Source: an uncultured Desulfatiglans sp.
GTDB taxonomy: Bacteria; Desulfobacterota; DSM-4660; Desulfatiglandales; HGW-15
Direction of reading: 5' to 3'
NCBI GenBank assembly: GCA_964460435.1
Contig: CAYWRH010000002.1
Span: 15,500-79,499 of the forward strand
DNA length: 64,000 bases
Below the pieces are notes generated by a model that ran no database searches, was not told the origin of the DNA, and was given only the letters and a program-made list of their open reading frames with translations. Positions 2,371 through 13,329 of this stretch are shown piece after piece. Position 1 is the stretch's first letter. Each line of letters opens with the position of its first letter. A program made the position numbers and the translations under genes.

Positions 2371-5007
2371 TTAACCGGCAATAATTTTATCAATTGATTC
2401 CAGGGCCTGAGCAAGTTTTTGCGGGTTACTGCCGCCGCCCTGGGCCATATCTGGCCTGCCGCCGCCCTTTCCTCCAACAAGCTCTGACATCTCATTTATG
2501 ATCTTCCCTGCATTATATCTCTTTGTAAGGTCATCCGTGACTGCGCATATGAGCATAACCTTTCCTTCGCTCTTTGAGCCCAGGACTATAATCCCGGATG
2601 CCAATTTTTCTCTTATCCTGTCCACATAATCGCGGAGCTCCTTTGGTGACGAGGCTTCAATCTCTTTGGCAAGCACCTTTATTCCGCCAGTCTCTTTCAA
2701 GCCTGAAAGGATATCACCTGATTCCCTTGAAATGATCTTTGCCTTGAGGGCTTCAATCTCGGCATCCTTCTGCTTCTGGTCTCTTAATAACTGATTTATT
2801 TTTTCTATTAGCTGATCCGGAGCAGTCTTTAACAATGCGGCAGCCTCTTTTATCTCATTATCCTGTGTCTGCGAAAAAAGAACAGCTGCTTTGCCGGTTA
2901 CAGCCTCAATCCTTCTGACATTGGCAGCCACTGCCCCCTCTGACACTATCTTGAAAAAGCCTATATTGCCTGTGCTGTGCGTATGGGTGCCCCCGCAGAG
3001 CTCCTTGCTTACTCCTTCTCCTACACTTACCACCCTGACATTTGCGCCATACCTCTCTTCAAATATGGCCATAGCACCTGTCTTTGATGCCTCTTCCCTT
3101 GTCATCACCTCTGTCGTAACAGGGTGATTATCCCTGATATGCATGTTTACAAGGGCCTCCACCTCCATGAGCTTTTCCTTTTCAACCTGGGCAAAATGGC
3201 TGAAATCAAAACGCAGCCGCTCAGCAGATACCTGCGACCCTGCCTGCTTGACATGATCTCCTATTATCTCCCTGAGGGCGCTGTGTAAAAGATGTGTAGC
3301 AGTATGGTTTGCCTGTATGGCCCTTCTTCTTTCATAATCCACGAGTGCGGTTATCTCATCACCTATTTTTACAATGCCGTCCGCCACTTTGCCTTTATGT
3401 ATAATAAGGTCAGTGCCTGCCTTTATGGTATCTGTGATCATGATCTTTACACTGCTGTTACTGAGCGTGCCCTGATCCCCGACCTGGCCGCCGCTTTCGC
3501 CATAAAAGGGGGTGGATTCAAGGACTATTTCCACAGCATCATTCGCCTTTGCCATAGATGCCTCCCTGCAATCAACAAGGATGGCAGATACCTTTGATTT
3601 ATATGGCTGTATCTGATCACGGATAAAAAGAGACCGGCAGCCGCCTGAGGCAAGCTTCTTGTAAACCTCCGGTATCTTCTCTTCCCCGCTCCCCTTCCAT
3701 GATTCCCTTGACTGGTTTTTCTGGGATGACATGGATTTTTCGTATGAATCCATATCGATAGTCAGCCCTTCATCCCTGGCAACATCCTGCACTATGTCAA
3801 GCGAGAGACCATAGGTGTCATAGAGCTTAAAGGCAAGCTCTCCGGGGATTACATTGCCCCTGCCGGACTTGATCCTTTCTATCTCATCGCTCAGTATCTT
3901 CATGCTGTAGAAGAGTGTGTCAGCAAACCTCTTTTCCTCATTAATTAGAACCCCTTTGATAAATGATCTTGACCCCTCAAGGTCTGTATAGTGGCCGCCC
4001 ATTGCATCTATCACACTCTCCGCAACGCTGTGAAAGAATGGGCCTTTAAATCCTAAAACCTGTCCATACCTGATGGCCCTGCGGATTATGCGCCTTAATA
4101 CATAGCCGCGCCCTTCATTTGAGGGCATAATGCCATCGCCTATAAGAAAGGCGGCTGCCCTTGCATGGTCTGAAATAACCCTGAAGGAGAGATCATATCT
4201 CTCATTATCGCCGTATTTTATGGAGGAAAGCTCCTGGATTCGGTTTATGGGCACACTGAAGATATCTGTATCATAATTGCTTTTTACGCCCTGGATAACC
4301 GCTGTTACCCTTTCAAGACCCATGCCTGTATCAATGTTGGGTTTTGGCAGCGGTGTGAGTTTGCCTGACGGGCTTCTGTCAAACTGGGTGAATACAAGGT
4401 TCCATATCTCCAGAAACCTGTCACAGTCGCATGCAGGGCCGCAGTCAGGCCTGCCGCAGCCAACAGATGCCCCCTGGTCAAAGTGTATCTCAGAACATGG
4501 GCCGCATGGGCCTGTGTCACCCATTGCCCAGAAATTATCCTTTTCACCGAGCCTTGTTATGCGCGAGGCAGGGATGCCTATCTTTTTTTCCCAGATATCA
4601 TGGGCCTCATCGTCATCCTTGTATATGGTGATATGCAGCCTATCCCTATCAAGCTTATAGCCCTCCATAAGCAGTTCCCATGCCCATGTAATGGCCTCCT
4701 CCTTGAAATAGTCGCCAAAGGAGAAATTGCCGAGCATCTCAAAAAAGGTGTGATGCCTTGCAGTATAGCCCACATTTTCAAGGTCATTGTGCTTTCCGCC
4801 TGCCCTTACGCACTTCTGGGAGGTGGCAGCCCTGGTGTAGCCCCTTTTTTCTTCCCCTAAAAAAAGCCCCTTGAACTGCACCATCCCGGCGTTTGTAAAC
4901 AGGAGGGTCGGATCATCCCTGGGGATAAGTGATGAACTTGCTACAATCTCGTGGCCCTTGCCCCTGAAAAAATCAAGGTACTTTGCTCTGATTTCCTTGT
5001 GATCCAT
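2371..5007 (-). CDS. alaS: alanine--tRNA ligase
   Basis: 878 aa. Class II AlaRS signature HHTFFEMLGNFSFGDYFK, editing-domain HTATHLLH and C-terminal GGKGGGRPDMAQGGG are all present. Confidence 0.97.
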   Translation of the reverse strand: MDHKEIRAKYLDFFRGKGHEIVASSSLIPRDDPTLLFTNAGMVQFKGLFLGEEKRGYTRAATSQKCVRAGGKHNDLENVGYTARHHTFFEMLGNFSFGDYFKEEAITWAWELLMEGYKLDRDRLHITIYKDDDEAHDIWEKKIGIPASRITRLGEKDNFWAMGDTGPCGPCSEIHFDQGASVGCGRPDCGPACDCDRFLEIWNLVFTQFDRSPSGKLTPLPKPNIDTGMGLERVTAVIQGVKSNYDTDIFSVPINRIQELSSIKYGDNERYDLSFRVISDHARAAAFLIGDGIMPSNEGRGYVLRRIIRRAIRYGQVLGFKGPFFHSVAESVIDAMGGHYTDLEGSRSFIKGVLINEEKRFADTLFYSMKILSDEIERIKSGRGNVIPGELAFKLYDTYGLSLDIVQDVARDEGLTIDMDSYEKSMSSQKNQSRESWKGSGEEKIPEVYKKLASGGCRSLFIRDQIQPYKSKVSAILVDCREASMAKANDAVEIVLESTPFYGESGGQVGDQGTLSNSSVKIMITDTIKAGTDLIIHKGKVADGIVKIGDEITALVDYERRRAIQANHTATHLLHSALREIIGDHVKQAGSQVSAERLRFDFSHFAQVEKEKLMEVEALVNMHIRDNHPVTTEVMTREEASKTGAMAIFEERYGANVRVVSVGEGVSKELCGGTHTHSTGNIGFFKIVSEGAVAANVRRIEAVTGKAAVLFSQTQDNEIKEAAALLKTAPDQLIEKINQLLRDQKQKDAEIEALKAKIISRESGDILSGLKETGGIKVLAKEIEASSPKELRDYVDRIREKLASGIIVLGSKSEGKVMLICAVTDDLTKRYNAGKIINEMSELVGGKGGGRPDMAQGGGSNPQKLAQALESIDKIIAG

Positions 5008-5025
5008 ATATAGAATAATCCTTTA

Positions 5026-6057
5026 TCATTCCTGAGTTTCAGACTCGTTCGCAGATTTTGCCTTCCAGATACCTGCCTTTTCCCTGACAAGATCAGATAT
5101 CCGGTTTAAAATATCCACATTTTCAGAGAGGAATTTTTTTACATTCTCCCTGCCCTGGCCAATCCTCTCACCTTCAAAGGAGTACCATGCACCGCTCTTT
5201 TCAACTATGCCCATATCAGCTCCAAGGTCAAGCACATCACCCTCCTTTGATATGCCATGCCCATAGATGATATCAAACTCAGCCTCCTTGAAGGGCGGGG
5301 CCACCTTGTTCTTTACCACCTTTACCTTGGTCCTGCTGCCTATTACATCGTTCCCCTCCTTTATGGCGCCTGTGCGGCGGATATCGAGCCGCTGGGTCGC
5401 ATAGAATTTAAGGGCATTACCGCCAGTGGTGGTTTCAGGGCTACCGAACATTACCCCTATCTTCATCCTGATCTGGTTGATAAATATTACGCATGTCTTT
5501 GATTTGCTTATGGTGGCTGTAAGCTTCCTTAATGCCTGTGACATGAGCCTCGCCTGAAGGCCCATATGCTGATCGCCCATATCGCCCTCAATCTCTGCCC
5601 TTGGCACAAGGGCCGCAACAGAGTCAATAACAAGCACATCAATGGCGCCGCTTCTTACAAGTATCTCCGCTATATCAAGCCCCTGCTCGCCTGTATCGGG
5701 CTGTGAAACAAGGAGGCTGTCAACATCTACCCCAAGATTTCTGGCATAGGCCATATCAAGGGCATGCTCTGCATCTATAAAGGCGACCATACCATCTCTC
5801 TTTTGTGCCTCTGCGGAGATATGCAGGGCAAGGGTGGTTTTGCCGGAGGATTCAGGGCCATATATCTCAACAACCCTTCCCCTTGGCACACCGCCTACCC
5901 CAAGGGCAAGGTCAAGGGCGAGGGAACCTGTGGGGATAGCAGGCACAGCAATGATATTATCATCGCTCATCTTCATAATGGAGCCCCTGCCAAACTGCCT
6001 TTCAATCTGGGAAATGGCCTGTTCAACCGCCTTGTTTCTTTCTAAAGTTTCCGCCAT
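5026..6057 (-). CDS. recA: recombinase RecA
   Basis: 343 aa. Walker [10 protein letters not shown], the FIDAEHALD motif and L2-loop region are present. Gene lies 18 nt upstream of alaS. No recX lies between them. Confidence 0.98.
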
Positions 6058-9800: not shown

Positions 9801-10088
9801 TTTGTTAGCATCATACAAAGACCTGCTCTGGTCATTGGCTACATTTCTGAGTTCGTGGAGGGCCTTGCCTATAAGGTTTTCGCTGTAATACTTACGGTTA
9901 AGATATTCTCTCAGAATATCTTCTTCAATGTTGCTGTTCTCATCACGCTCTTTCCAGTTTCCGAGATAATTATATCCCAGTTCTTCATTAAGTAGCAGGA
10001 TTACCCTGTTTTGCGTTTCTCTCTCTTGTTTGCCGAGGTTTGATAATGGTGAATGGTGAGTTGTGAATGGTGAATTAGTTTTTATCAT
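6897..10088 (-). CDS. hsdR: Type I restriction endonuclease subunit R
   Basis: 1063 aa. Helicase motif I (HTQGSGKSLTMV) and DEAH-type motif II (VFVDECHRTQ) are present. The N-terminal GKQERETQNRV...SNIEE block is typical of this family. The first ~15 codons lie inside a GTGAATGG repeat arm. Confidence 0.95.
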   Translation of the reverse strand: MIKTNSPFTTHHSPLSNLGKQERETQNRVILLLNEELGYNYLGNWKERDENSNIEEDILREYLNRKYYSENLIGKALHELRNVANDQSRSLYDANKDLYSMLRYGVDVLPDIGQNKKTVWLIDWEHPLENDFSIAEEVTIRGFHKKRPDIVIYVNGIALGVLELKRSTVSISEGIRQNLDNQKHIFIKPFFNTIQFIMAGNDVEGLKYGAVGTKEKYFLKWKEVNEEFNRDYPYLLNLTKSIRDRASKYDYPLDKNIVELLNKERFIELIHDFIVYDRGEKKLARPNQYFGIKAAQDFVKRKEGGIIWHTQGSGKSLTMVWLTRWLREHNPDARVLIITDRDELDEQIEKVFKGVNEKIYRTISGKDLLNRLNDNSPLLMCSLIHKFGGKEEVDDRDVDAYLEELRNNIPSNFKAKGDLYVFVDECHRTQTGKLHKAMKQFLPDALFIGFTGTPLLKSDKQTSLETFGRYIHTYKFDEAVNDKVVLDLRYEARDIEQKITSAERIDEWFDLKTRGLSDFARTELKQKWGTLKKVFSSKSRLEKIVLDIMLDMARKERLQNGRGNAILVSDSIYNACRYYDLFQSAGLKECAIVTSFVPSHRDIKLEESGEGYTERLQRFEIYQKMLADYFNESPETAINKVEQFELEVKKRFVEEPAQMKLLIVVNKLLTGFDAPPATYLYLDKKLRDHGLFQAVCRVNRLDGDDKEYGYIIDYMDLFRSLEAAFKDYTSEVFGGYEKTDIDGLLKDRLQKGKERLDEALEAIKALCEAVDPPKDTISNIRYFCGKDIENPDELKDTEPRRVSLYKNTISLIRAYANIADEMKEAGYSDREAEQIKNDVKHFENLRKEIQLASGDYVDLKQYEPAMRHLIDSYIGAEESRMLANFDDLSLVELLIERGKDAIKEFPANIRNNKDAMAEVIENNLRRLIIEESPTNPVYYEKMSVLLKELIRLRKEATIEYEKYLEEVIALSGKIKKPDTATDYPLSMDTKAKRALYDNLEKNEKIAEELDKRIMATKKDGWRDHFQKSKAVRHAISEALNRYGIKDDAEVSRIFDIVKNQKDY
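10041..10085. repeat. GTGAATGG-type octamer array (downstream arm of the degenerate 4HB cassette)
   Basis: The sequence ttgataatggtgaatggtgagttgtgaatggtgaattag matches 11624-11659. It overlaps hsdR codons 2-16. Confidence 0.8.
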
Positions 10089-10090
10089 TT

Positions 10091-10237
10091 TTATTCCTTT
10101 ATACAGATTGCCGTACCGCTTCTTAGCAATTGCTTACTTAAGATGTACTCCTTCTTTTCATCCTGCAAATATTTAAAGAGCTTAACCACTCGCAAGGCAA
10201 AGGCAAAACTTTTATCTTTAACAACATTTTCTCTCAT
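10091..10237 (-). pseudogene. internally deleted four-helix-bundle (23S rRNA IVS-type) gene remnant
   Basis: It keeps ~44 N-terminal codons (MRENVVKDKSFAFALRVVKLFKYLQDEKKEYILSKQLLRSGTAI) that align with the intact copy at 11881-12022. It then jumps to the last ~20 nt of that gene (tagtttttatcatttttat). About 190 bp are missing. The frame ends at TAA 10091-10093, 2 nt before the hsdR ATG. Confidence 0.65.
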
Positions 10238-10270
10238 GCCATTCACCCTTTACCATTCACAATTCAGAAT
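10238..10270. repeat. CCATTCAC-type octamer array (upstream arm of the degenerate cassette)
   Basis: ccattcaccctttaccattcacaattc is identical to 12024-12050. Confidence 0.8.
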
Positions 10271-10273
10271 TAA

Positions 10274-11623
10274 TTAAAGAATCTCCCAATGACCTCCCTT
10301 TTTAGGGCCTTTATAAGCTATCTTTCCTTCCTTCTGTAATCTGGACGCAGCTTTTTCAACGGCTCTGATTGACTTCCCTATCTGTTCTGATATTTCTACA
10401 AGGGTGATATTCGGATTTTTTTCTATTTTATCCATTATTGCATCAGTGGTTTTTACCGTCGTTTTTACCGTCGTTTTTACCGTCGTTTCTACCGTCGTTT
10501 TAGTATCGACCTCTGAATCGGAAAAGTGGAATATCATCCATAAACCATTCGGTTCATATTCTATTTCAAATCTGGCAGTCCCTGATTCCAAGCATGCTTC
10601 GGATATTTTTTCAATTCCGCGGCCCCAGGCCTCTATCATTCCGGCGCGGAAGAACACGTCTGCTATATCAGGGTTAAAAGGCTGTGAAGAATGCTTTTTT
10701 ATAAGGGTATCAACTGTCCATCCTTCAGGCAAGGTTCCCGGATTCCATAGCATGACCTTGTTGTCATAAACGCTTATCTGGATAGGAATAGAACTCCCAT
10801 AATCCTTATGGGCTACCGCATTAAGAAGAGACTCCCGCAGGGCTTTTTCCGGAACCGGATAGGATTCTATTCGCTGGACACCCTTGTATGAAATCCTTGC
10901 ATGAAGATATTTTGTAAGTAGAATATCCATGGTTTTATCAACCTGAGTGAACAGGTTCCCATGAATCTCATCATGAAAGAGAAGGTCAGCATCACTCTTA
11001 AAAAATCCCACCTTAATAAACGACCCGGTTACATATTTTTCAGGATCAGGGTGAAATAGCAGGATAGACGCCCTTTTGAAGTATGTTTTCTCCTTGAGGT
11101 GAAGTTTATCCATCAGGGAACTATCAGAGTCATTCAATATCTCTGCTGGCAAACGCTTGCTTAACAGCGCCTTTTCTCTGAAGATACTTATTGTCTTTTT
11201 ATCAAAATCAGCAAGTTTAAGATTCGGCACAGGAACACCATCCCAGTGTCTGCCCTGTTTGCTGAGTAAAAACCGGTCAAGGGCAGCGCCTTTCAGCTCC
11301 TGTTTTGTGCTGCCGCTCCGGTAATGGTATTCGCCGCAATAGCTTACCGGGTAGGGGTAGGGAGCAACCACAATTTCAAGGTATTCCTTTTTCTTTTCCG
11401 ATTTCAGGTTTACATCAACCATAATTCCAAGGATGTCACGAACCTTATTCGGGATATCTTCAAGGAGTTTTTTGACATTGGATAATCCTACAACGTTACC
11501 ATTGTCATCTTTACCAATATAAAGAACCCCGCCTTCAGCATTTGCATAACCGCAAATCCATTTAAGGTAATCATCACGCCATGATGTCTTGAATTCTATA
11601 TTCTGGTTTTCTTTCATAAGCAT
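10274..11623 (-). CDS. AlbA_2 (Schlafen-like) domain protein with RecG-C-like/HATPase_c_4 region and C-terminal wHTH
   Basis: 449 aa. The N-terminus ENQNIEFKTSWRDDYLKWICGYANAEGGVLYIGKDDNGNVVGL fits the AlbA_2 pattern. The C-terminus (IEKNPNITLVEISEQIGKSIRAVEKAASRLQKEGKI) looks like a winged helix. Family call is from memory. Confidence 0.75.
   Translation of the reverse strand: MLMKENQNIEFKTSWRDDYLKWICGYANAEGGVLYIGKDDNGNVVGLSNVKKLLEDIPNKVRDILGIMVDVNLKSEKKKEYLEIVVAPYPYPVSYCGEYHYRSGSTKQELKGAALDRFLLSKQGRHWDGVPVPNLKLADFDKKTISIFREKALLSKRLPAEILNDSDSSLMDKLHLKEKTYFKRASILLFHPDPEKYVTGSFIKVGFFKSDADLLFHDEIHGNLFTQVDKTMDILLTKYLHARISYKGVQRIESYPVPEKALRESLLNAVAHKDYGSSIPIQISVYDNKVMLWNPGTLPEGWTVDTLIKKHSSQPFNPDIADVFFRAGMIEAWGRGIEKISEACLESGTARFEIEYEPNGLWMIFHFSDSEVDTKTTVETTVKTTVKTTVKTTDAIMDKIEKNPNITLVEISEQIGKSIRAVEKAASRLQKEGKIAYKGPKKGGHWEIL
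10449..10508. repeat. in-frame 12-nt tandem repeat (gtttttaccgtc x4 plus one degenerate unit)
   Basis: Units lie at 10449-60, 10461-72, 10473-84 and 10485-96 (one substitution), with a degenerate unit at 10497-508. They encode TTVETTVKTTVKTTVKTT in the linker before the wHTH. Confidence 0.9.
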
Positions 11624-12073
11624 TCCAATTGTGAATTGTGAGTGGTAAATGGTGAATTAGTTTTTATCATTTTTATCACCTTTTGCGGTAAGGATGATAG
11701 ATGCAAGTAATTTTTTTAGTTCAGTTATATCAGGGATTATTGAATTGTACTGCACTGTTTCTAGATATTCCGATTTATATAAAAGATCAAGCCAGTATTC
11801 GGTTTCGTTTGCTTCCTTTTGAGCGATCGCCATTTTGTGAATGAAATCGGCTTTGCTTTCCGCCTGTTCTGCCTCACGTATCAAAGCTCCGATTGCTGTG
11901 CCGCTTCGAAGTAGTTGCTTACCTATAACATATTCTTTCTTTTCATTCTGTAAGTACTGGAAAAGTTTAACGATCCGCAAAGCAAAGGCAAAACTTTTAT
12001 CTTTAACAACATTTTCCCTCATGCCATTCACCCTTTACCATTCACAATTCATCATTCACCCTTCACCATTACT
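11624..12073 (-). mobile_element. four-helix-bundle gene cassette bounded by inverted octamer arrays (IVS-like element)
   Basis: A GTGAATKG array (11624-11656) and a CCATTCAC array (12023-12073) are reverse complements and flank the ORF directly. A second, deleted copy and an ORF-less arm pair occur in the same island. Confidence 0.45.
11657..12022 (-). CDS. four helix bundle protein (23S rRNA intervening-sequence protein family)
   Basis: 121 aa from the ATG at 12022; the track extends to a GTG at 12031. MRENVVKDKSFAFALRIVKLFQYL...SGTAIGALIREAEQAESKADFIHKMAIAQKEANETEYWL is the typical family pattern. Confidence 0.85.
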   Translation of the reverse strand: MRENVVKDKSFAFALRIVKLFQYLQNEKKEYVIGKQLLRSGTAIGALIREAEQAESKADFIHKMAIAQKEANETEYWLDLLYKSEYLETVQYNSIIPDITELKKLLASIILTAKGDKNDKN

Positions 12074-13306: not shown

Positions 13307-13329
13307 ATTCCCCGATCAAGTCGGGGAAT
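13307..13329. repeat. REP-like hairpin attccccga-tcaag-tcggggaat
   Basis: A perfect 9-bp stem lies in the hsdM-hsdS spacer. It belongs to the short GC-rich palindrome class seen elsewhere in the window. Confidence 0.6.

Follow-up and report, generated by a model that had tools for sequence, protein, structure and literature searches.

Why should a bacterial restriction operon carry, in the narrow spacers between its genes, small open reading frames (ORFs) for a four-helix-bundle (4HB) protein, each framed by mirror-image arrays of a short repeat? The question is raised by a 64,000-nt stretch of DNA from an uncultured Desulfatiglans sp. (GenBank assembly GCA_964460435.1, contig CAYWRH010000002.1, positions 15,500 to 79,499; hereafter the window, in whose numbering all its coordinates are given), which contains a type I restriction-modification (R-M) operon with hsdM, hsdS and hsdR all present on the same strand (Pfam domains). 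An earlier note on this DNA had proposed that 4HB genes of the kind first found in 23S rRNA intervening sequences (IVSs) occupy junctions of this operon as repeat-bracketed cassettes. Coordinates, profile searches and shuffles bear this out, and the arrangement is more general than was supposed. The explanation we favour, with about even confidence, is that heptamer-array hairpins form a widespread family with three members in the window, that two of these carry or once carried a promoter-less 4HB gene in the loop, and that the elements are looped out or processed by RNase III. As far as sequence can carry it, the argument draws on the anatomy of the elements, their generality, the covariation of their arms, their co-oriented placement, their ORF-less relatives and the capture of the hsdR start codon.

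The intact 4HB gene of cassette 1 (12022-11657, minus strand; 121 aa) matches PF05635 (E 3.6e-28, 98.3 bits against a cutoff of 33.8) and TIGR02436 (106.1 bits, cutoff 24) and is close to PDB entry 2RLD (phmmer E 1.9e-42 over 115 residues), which contains 5 chains; a pentameric state of PF05635 family members is known from the literature (PMC4990558). The gene lies between hsdS (13273-12074, minus; Methylase_S; stop codon 12076-12074) and a gene for an AlbA_2 (Schlafen)-HATPase_c_4-winged helix-turn-helix (wHTH) protein (11623-10274, minus). Cassette 2 separates this AlbA_2 gene from hsdR (10088-6897, minus; HSDR_N, SWI2_SNF2 and T1R_D3) and contains a truncated 4HB ORF of 48 aa (10237-10091, minus) that stops 2 nt before the hsdR ATG. 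The truncated copy reaches 31.1 bits against PF05635, under the cutoff, and matches copy 1 with an E value of 1e-21; it is the same gene minus ~225 nt internally, with the frame shifted by the deletion. The 64-kb window contains no 4HB ORFs besides the intact and truncated copies.

The flanking arms are built of a heptamer unit, reading (GTGAATG)n on the upstream side and (CATTCAC)n on the downstream side. The earlier note had read the arrays as octameric; the apparent octamer GTGAATGG is one heptamer unit plus the first G of the next, and Tandem Repeats Finder (TRF) independently calls period 7 at four of the six arms. The 5' arm of cassette 1 (12073-12023, minus) consists of seven units (12073-12025: AGTAATG, GTGAAGG, GTGAATG, ATGAATT, GTGAATG, GTAAAGG and GTGAATG) followed by GC and runs up to the 4HB ATG, the first unit starting one base past the hsdS stop and the last ending two bases short of the ATG (TRF: period 7, 6.7 copies, 12024-12070). 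Its 3' arm (11658-11624, minus) has five units (AATTCAC, CATTTAC, CACTCAC, AATTCAC and AATTGGA), begins within the TAA stop of the 4HB gene and abuts the ATG of the AlbA_2 gene (11623). Cassette 2 has five units per side: ATTAATT, CTGAATT, GTGAATG, GTAAAGG and GTGAATG, then GC, in the 5' arm (10274-10238, minus), whose first base is the final A of the AlbA_2 gene stop codon, and AATTCAC, CATTCAC, AACTCAC, CATTCAC and CATTATC in the 3' arm (10076-10042, minus). A third arm pair, which the earlier note had also spotted, lies at the lpxB/hsdM junction (15927-15859, minus) and encloses no ORF: a 5' arm of ~3 units (15927-15904) and a 3' arm of five (15893-15859) are separated by a 10-nt spacer. 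The lpxB stop codon (15918-15916) falls inside this 5' arm, so the last lpxB codons are repeat-derived.

These arrays stand out from the rest of the window. The GTGAATGG motif occurs 9 times against 2.25 expected, a count that none of 100 shuffles reached, and the 22-mer GTGAATGGTAAAGGGTGAATGG occurs exactly twice, once in each cassette's 5' arm, against an expectation of 0. A 3-unit scan of the full 64 kb confined heptamer arrays to the three hsd-operon junctions described above, where arms begin 0-1 nt after the upstream stop codon; the hsdM|hsdS and ygjP|recA junctions of the island have no arm pairs. At the window arms, no promoter or terminator signal rose above chance and no terminator-like T tracts were found, and neither the window arms nor those of 14 related loci matched any Rfam family. 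Both cassettes are mosaic when aligned (12073-11880 with 10274-10100): the ORF-proximal arm and the first ~40 nt of the ORF (~70 nt together) are ~97% identical, the following ~95 nt just ~68% identical, and the final ~30 nt identical again, a pattern that suggests gene conversion or recombination at the cassette ends.

The arms are predicted to close on one another. RNAfold pairs arm with arm at all three sites, in both the minimum free energy and the centroid structures, in keeping with the earlier proposal that a stem could enclose the whole ORF; the predicted helix ends no more than 3 nt from the ORF start codon and takes in part of the stop codon. The pairing once described as ~22 nt interrupted by a 7-nt bulge is replaced, at copy 1, by a helix of 10+7+7 bp with two single mismatches. 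Arm-arm duplex energies at the three sites are -33.8, -26.4 and -21.5 kcal/mol. All 5' arms of the operon can also pair with all 3' arms (-21 to -39 kcal/mol), and the strongest duplex, between the first 5' arm and the last 3' arm, would loop out the 2-kb hsdS-hsdR insert.

Is this layout peculiar to one operon? We scanned one genome per species for relatives of the window 4HB protein, obtained 497 matches and kept the best 80 loci, picked by similarity to that protein (61-78% identity); with the two window copies these give 82 copies. The loci span about ten phyla, including Bacteroidota, Planctomycetota, Proteobacteria, Cyanobacteria, Spirochaetota, Verrucomicrobiota, Acidobacteriota, Chloroflexota and Nitrospirota. 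An upstream array of at least 3 units precedes 76 of the 82 copies, the reverse complement follows 69, and 63 have both, compared with arrays of at least 3 units in 11 of 330 random segments of the same loci. By a measure of strong period-7 character, arms are present on both sides of 63 of 89 copies, compared with 2% of control segments. Units follow the consensus G-[A/T]-N-A-A-T-[T/G], with positions 4-6 conserved at 92-99% and positions 3 and 7 variable. Most commonly the ATG forms the last three bases of the last upstream unit (22 copies) and the last two bases of the stop codon lie in the first downstream unit (23 copies); with start and stop codons embedded in the terminal units, the ORF fills the loop exactly. 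The modal arm length is five units, both upstream (31/82) and downstream (41/82). No 4HB relatives were found on viral contigs.

The two arms of a copy match each other more closely than they match the arms of other copies. The best ungapped helix has a median length of 31 bp, with ~84% Watson-Crick pairs, and a copy's own arms pair at -31.2 kcal/mol compared with -23.2 kcal/mol for arms from other loci (Wilcoxon p = 2e-7) and an average of -17 kcal/mol for shuffled-arm duplexes. When period-7 consensus units were derived de novo for each arm, those of the two arms differed at 0-1 positions in 47 of 63 copies (permutation p ~2e-4). Divergent 4HB copies in the comparison loci have other units that are still matched between arms (GGTTAGT/ACTAACC, GATTAGT/CAACTAA, GTGAAAA/TTTTCAC, ATGAATT/AATTCAT and GATTTTC/GAAAATC), indicating that what is conserved is tandem period 7 with complementarity and not one particular sequence. 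A unit-by-unit analysis of covariation in a fixed register, feasible for the 9 loci with canonical geometry at both ends, did not find units pairing one-to-one. Helix mismatches concentrate at unit positions 3 (33%) and 7 (20%) and are not strictly periodic, and for this reason we dropped the idea of a flipped-base mismatch every 7 bp as evidence.

Placement is equally regular. The upstream neighbour shares its strand with the 4HB gene in 72 of 74 loci and the downstream neighbour in 67 of 79. The median spacer is 33.5 nt from the upstream stop to the 4HB ATG and 37 nt from the 4HB stop to the next start, roughly one arm length in each case, as the description of discrete repeat-bounded cassettes in intercistronic spacers would have it. 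Co-orientation, spacers made up of little but an arm, and the lack of promoter or terminator signals together make the cassettes look like promoter-less inserts that depend on the host operon transcript. Judged by sequence, nearly every close 4HB relative across about ten phyla appears to be such an insert, with its start and stop codons set in mirror-image arrays.

Restriction operons are one favoured setting among several. The earlier note stated that 4HB genes often neighbour hsdS, and we find co-oriented hsd genes in 17 of the 80 loci (tblastn), confirmed by a Pfam census of neighbours. The commonest neighbour families include Methylase_S, N6_Mtase, HSDR_N/ResIII, EcoEI_R_C and YgjP-like, each accounting for 4-9 of 74-78 neighbours, and HipA, Fic, RhuM and AlbA_2 also appear; the remainder are housekeeping genes, such as those for mevalonate decarboxylase, FIST, RsgA followed by Dtd, and EPSP synthase (aroA). 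Overall, ~75-80% of cassettes reside in housekeeping or other non-R-M operons. PF05635 members have also been placed inside cas operons (PMC3936711; PMC10910872). The association with hsd is real and covers about a fifth to a quarter of copies, though some of it may stem from common ancestry with an hsd operon that has been transferred widely.

At the AlbA_2|hsdR junction, the insert has taken over the start of its downstream neighbour. The window HsdR is 76-86% identical to proteins from many phyla, most of which begin MSNIGKKERETQNRV; it begins MIKTNSPFTTHHSPL-SNLGKQERETQNRV and a deltaproteobacterial ortholog begins MAKNNSPFTIHNSPFTIHNS-TIGNLERATQNRV, the N-terminal extension in both being the translated 3' arm. 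In the window, a 15-residue extension, MIKTNSPFTTHHSPL (10088-10044, minus), replaces the native M of MSNIGKKERETQNRV. The hsdR ATG at 10088 lies within the former 3' end of the 4HB gene, among its last codons, and the 3' arm of cassette 2 supplies HsdR codons 5-15 (NSPFTTHHSPL). Close orthologs of the operon (77-86% HsdR identity) have no insert at the hsdR junction: there the preceding stop overlaps the hsdR ATG as ATGA, the preceding gene being the AlbA_2 gene in locus L083 and hsdS in L084 and L085. In the window, L001 and L086, this overlap has been replaced by the cassette, the native hsdR ATG is gone, and hsdR is in frame through arms of differing length, with the ATG within the last 4HB codons as its sole canonical in-frame start. 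Comparison with the empty site places cassette 2 at ~10274-10042, in agreement with the left boundary given in the earlier note. No target-site duplication is evident at the AlbA_2|hsdR junction against the empty site in L083, the one junction that could be compared. At the hsdS|AlbA_2 junction of L083 (5510-5660), the closest ortholog that is poor in inserts, hsdS reads into a degenerate 5' arm (...IKNNGEL*), and an ORF-less remnant of ~90 nt with a weak 3' arm stands where the window has the intact 4HB gene.

Arrays also exist without 4HB genes. Among the 62 strict arm pairs of the 4HB-selected loci, 50 have a 4HB gene between their arms and 9 are hairpins without an ORF, which often keep ATG...TAA vestiges; solo pairs adjoin cassettes. 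Such loci are a biased sample for judging array specificity. When metagenome contigs were scanned without bias for runs of three perfect GTGAATK units, 80 loci with 85 arrays emerged, on contigs of 29-69% G+C among those inspected. ORF-less arm pairs were commonest here and lone arrays next, and, among 61 arrays with enough flank, a strongly complementary partner within 250 nt lay on the expected side in 33 and on the other side in 7 (Wilcoxon p = 2.5e-7). Only ~4-6 of the 85 arrays adjoin a PF05635-type ORF, motif screen included. Three of these ORFs are NIAEG-type members; those of L097 and L114 are 20-24% identical to the window 4HB protein, and those of L097 and L153 have canonical arms. 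No protein cargo other than PF05635 was seen between paired arms. The chance of finding an array beside a 4HB gene is ~0.9 and that of a 4HB gene beside an array ~0.06-0.1, which is still a large enrichment for one small gene family. The association proposed in the earlier note therefore stands from the side of the gene, with arrays flanking 76 of 82 copies, and not from the side of the array: the arms exist independently of the 4HB gene, arrays are not specific to it, and their abundance elsewhere partly matches the scatter that the note itself had named as grounds for abandoning the idea.

In L102 (870-1140) and L159 (~1213-1470), GTGAATK arm pairs enclose nested GC-rich hairpins (GGACGGGGTTTGCAACCCCGTCC, repeated) and no ORF. 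Lone arrays directly 5' of a start codon, with no inverted partner, occur in L088 (11468-11489; a 66% G+C contig, with a Shine-Dalgarno sequence between array and ATG) and L092 (7731-7752; 53% G+C), and recall the TAACTGA arrays upstream of start codons in Beggiatoaceae (PMC4679880).

Which known system do the elements most resemble? The closest are the ORF-containing 23S rRNA IVSs, found in Coxiella burnetii and Leptospira. In the Coxiella 23S rRNA IVS, a terminal stem of 28 bp surrounds an S23p (PF05635) ORF, with 2-3 tandem GACAGAT heptamers just before the ATG. Strains differ in the number of these heptamers, 176 bp of the ORF are deleted in one strain, and the first repeat is where cleavage by RNase III was mapped (Warrier et al. 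2016, PMC4990558). The window elements share with this IVS the PF05635 ORF, the pairing terminal inverted repeats that enclose this ORF, the heptamers before the ATG and the decay of the ORF, so the likeness to ORF-bearing 23S IVSs drawn in the earlier note is well founded. They differ in that the host transcript is a protein-coding operon, the unit is GTGAATG and not GACAGAT, both arms are clearly arrays, and a 3' arm has been recruited as coding sequence of the next gene; moreover, RNase III excision is known for the rRNA elements, whereas those of the window are known from their sequence. Insertion is between protein-coding genes instead of in 23S helix 25 or 45. No Rfam family, rRNA included, reached threshold anywhere in the window, and no conserved 23S motif was found in the 80 related loci; with no rRNA-embedded relatives among them, the link to rRNA IVSs rests on the literature.

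A second precedent comes from dispersed repeats. Xanthomonas campestris has 186 GGGAATC heptamer arrays, mostly of four units and 70 of them in convergent pairs, that sit a few bases after the upstream gene; Nostoc has GGGGAYT arrays, and the overrepresentation of heptameric repeats in bacteria has been called unexplained (Rehm et al. 2015, PMC4692102). The window arms have the properties of such dispersed heptameric simple sequence repeat arrays: they are intergenic, have period 7 and a comparable number of units (about four in Xanthomonas and Nostoc), lie near the upstream gene and form convergent pairs able to make a stem-loop. The published arrays, however, were read as G-quadruplex formers with no link to PF05635 or IVSs, and the window unit is too G-poor for a quadruplex. 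One entry bridges the two subjects: supplementary repeat 15 of Rehm et al. is a four-unit GGGAATC array, 6 nt after bccP, that overlaps the start codon of XCC0516 (PMC4692102), and XCC0516 is the crystallised four-helix-bundle pentamer of the PF05635 family (PMC4990558; PMC3936711), a connection not made by Rehm et al. A third comparison is the Haemophilus influenzae hmw1A leader, where, as a 2025 study showed, an (ATCTTTC)n hairpin is cut by RNase III with effects on downstream expression, the cut is needed for repeat-length change, and heptamer length changes drive phase variation (PMC12721329). There too a transcribed heptamer array forms a long RNase III-cut hairpin, but only one arm is a repeat array, the other being G-rich, and the hairpin lies in a 5' untranslated region, not between cistrons, with no ORF in its loop. 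Integron gene cassettes are a poorer fit, given two symmetric heptamer arms instead of a single attC, and no transposase, integron integrase or reverse transcriptase is among the gene families listed for the window (25 of 74). Neither Rfam nor the full-text literature, subscription-only papers excluded, yielded an account of arms made of heptamer arrays around 4HB genes outside rRNA, and no paper was found that ties the gene family, the IVS and heptamer repeats together. The elements are best classed as IVS-type heptamer-array hairpins residing in mRNA operons.

How might such an insert be tolerated? In the explanation we favour, the arms would pair in the hsd operon transcript into a 24-31 bp helix that would hide the 4HB start codon, and RNase III would cut this helix, by analogy with the Coxiella 23S IVS and the hmw1A hairpin. 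Pairing and cutting would loop out or excise the 4HB ORF in the RNA, so that an insert in rRNA or a tight operon could be tolerated. Cassette 2 has replaced a native stop/start overlap before hsdR; with the native ATG gone, HsdR must initiate at the cassette ATG, and its reading frame continues across the 3' arm. Ribosomes would then have to come through the cassette for HsdR to be made, and a cut in the helix would sever hsdR from its start codon. The truncated copy and the ORF-less pair would be decay products, and the cassettes would travel with horizontally transferred hsd and other operons.

Several observations weigh against this account. Cleavage and co-transcription in this organism are what we infer from its DNA. 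Whole-transcript folding did not differ significantly from shuffles (z -0.4 to -1.8), which confines the signal to the local closing helix and does not point to a globally structured RNA. Non-Watson-Crick helix positions show no excess of G:U over A:C (75 vs 99), and sense RNA is therefore not singled out over DNA as the level under selection; the conserved GNNAATK core and the tandem heptamers are not explained by mere complementarity either. ORF-less pairs and lone arrays far outnumber ORF-bearing ones, so that to speak of decayed cassettes may reverse the true descent. The association with hsd, finally, may be inflated by shared descent, since the loci were selected by protein similarity.

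The main rival, possible though on balance unlikely, moves the relationship to DNA and is compatible with RNA-level looping-out, the two not being mutually exclusive. Many dispersed intergenic inverted doublets without ORFs, a few copies of which flank a protein gene in inverted orientation, are features of repetitive extragenic palindrome doublets (REPINs) with their associated tyrosine transposases (RAYTs) and of MITEs, the miniature inverted-repeat transposable elements. On this model the arm pairs would be dispersed self-propagating hairpins, the 4HB pentamer, encoded by the few 'autonomous' copies, their cognate binding or mobilising factor, and the RNA helix a by-product. The window-type elements likewise comprise many ORF-less pairs and few that flank a protein gene. 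The predominance of ORF-less pairs in forward-reverse order (33 of 61 partnered on the right, 7 on the left), the solo pairs beside cassettes, a cargo restricted to PF05635 even where members are 20-24% identical, and the absence of G:U bias all fit, as do the 186 Xanthomonas arrays with 70 convergent pairs in a genome whose resident XCC0516 has its own GGGAATC array. The five-unit modal arm matches a homopentamer (2RLD, 5 chains). The homolog Avd, a positively charged pentameric barrel likened to 'S23 ribosomal proteins', binds structured RNA next to its own gene, a stem-loop whose bases are inserted into crevices between protomers. Avd itself is a distant guide: phmmer against PDB found 2RLD and not 4DWL, sequence similarity being too low, and the window does not look like a diversity-generating retroelement, its 4HB neighbours being hsdS, the AlbA_2 gene and hsdR, with no template/variable repeat. 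Weighing against a DNA-level partnership, the 4HB protein is a small four-helix bundle without a transposase fold, no catalytic motif or nuclease/recombinase domain is known in it or was found by profile searches, the arms are tandem microsatellites instead of unique palindromes, and the single comparable junction has no target-site duplication. Locus L062 carries several arm types, and the very different protein of L097 shares one arm type with the window protein's relatives, so arm-protein specificity is not one-to-one. Near-universal co-orientation points to reliance on host transcription, for which an element acting purely as DNA would have no use. The three 4HB cassettes of L062 lie in one hsd locus (1960-2328, 3353-3721 and 4989-5363), and their arm units differ: GGTTAGT, GATTAGT/GTTAGTT and GAAAGTT.

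A related idea, tentative and rather improbable, is that TIGR02436/PF05635 proteins are cognate partners of the hairpins, the homopentamer binding arms of about five units, as RNA or DNA, and helping to maintain, process or spread them in the manner of RAYTs with REPINs. Were this the case, it would account for the purpose of ORFs in rRNA IVSs, for the abundance of 4HB genes and their frequency in defence operons, and for the overrepresentation of heptameric repeats.

Restriction control, the functional idea of the earlier note, is quite unlikely. Here processing or occlusion of the helix would uncouple hsdM/hsdS from hsdR, with HsdR made late or at a low level. Cassettes do occur in several type I junctions (S|R, R|YgjP, M|S and upstream of M), and the hsdR genes of the window, L001 and L086, without an ATG of their own, start inside the cassette. 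Yet for ~75-80% of cassettes the setting is an unrelated operon (those of mevalonate decarboxylase, FIST, RsgA-Dtd, aroA and hipA among them), the orthologous operons with 77-86% HsdR identity work without an insert at the hsdR junction, and the copy before hsdR is a deletion remnant. The preponderance of non-R-M operons and the insert-free orthologs argue that the cassette is not an integral R-M control device.

Phase variation is very unlikely. Heptamer slippage in the translated 3' arm could switch hsdR off and on, because seven is not a multiple of three and the arm lies within the hsdR reading frame; strain-variable heptamer number in Coxiella (PMC4990558) and RNase III-dependent length changes at hmw1A (PMC12721329) provide precedents. 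With only five imperfect units (83% matches), however, the arm offers little for slippage to act on, the two independent contigs that carry the window locus are identical at the heptamer arm, and most loci have the start of the downstream gene beyond the arm. Restriction control and phase variation are possible local consequences of an insert, and neither explains the family. Chance low-complexity sequence, ordinary terminators or repetitive extragenic palindrome-like spacers unrelated to the ORF would suit the unremarkable folding z-scores and have next to no probability, rejected by the shuffles, the confinement to three sites in 64 kb, the lack of T tracts and a layout that recurs in 63-76 of the 82 homologous copies, with control segments at 2-3%.

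The elements link three literatures so far kept apart, none of which has put forward a mechanism that joins them: those on ORF-bearing rRNA IVSs, on the very large 4HB family in cas and R-M loci, and on overrepresented heptameric repeats. The sequences indicate that IVS ORFs, the 4HB family and heptamer repeats are parts of one object. There is also a consequence for annotation: arms can be translated as spurious or real N-terminal extensions, as in HsdR, and the start codons of downstream genes may fall inside an insert.

Upstream of the cassettes, on the minus strand, lie lpxB (17070-15916) and hsdM (15805-13361; N6_Mtase and HsdM_N), and past hsdR the minus-strand order is a YgjP-like gene, recA and alaS. 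Orthologous hsd operons were identified in L001, L083, L084 and L086. The HsdR family comes in two lengths, and the ~1174-aa form (P0134, P0158 and others) has an N-terminal extension of ~125 aa (MKLDYVKILYYYEVP...) with no Pfam domain on record. The 87-nt hsdM-hsdS spacer contains a GC-rich hairpin (ATTCCCCGA-CTTGA-TCGGGGAAT, 13307-13329, minus) unrelated to the heptamer arms. An ortholog of the AlbA_2 gene occupies the equivalent place in the cassette-poor operon L083, which marks it as an accessory gene that belongs to this hsd family independently of the cassettes. Its AlbA_2/Schlafen-type protein (10274-11623) matches PADLOC models for pAgo-associated proteins (Aga_SIR2-PNTD1-PNTD2, E 1.8e-20), and within the gene a 12-nt tandem repeat (10449-10501; 4.4 copies, 95% matches) encodes a (T-T-V-K/E)n linker ahead of the C-terminal wHTH.

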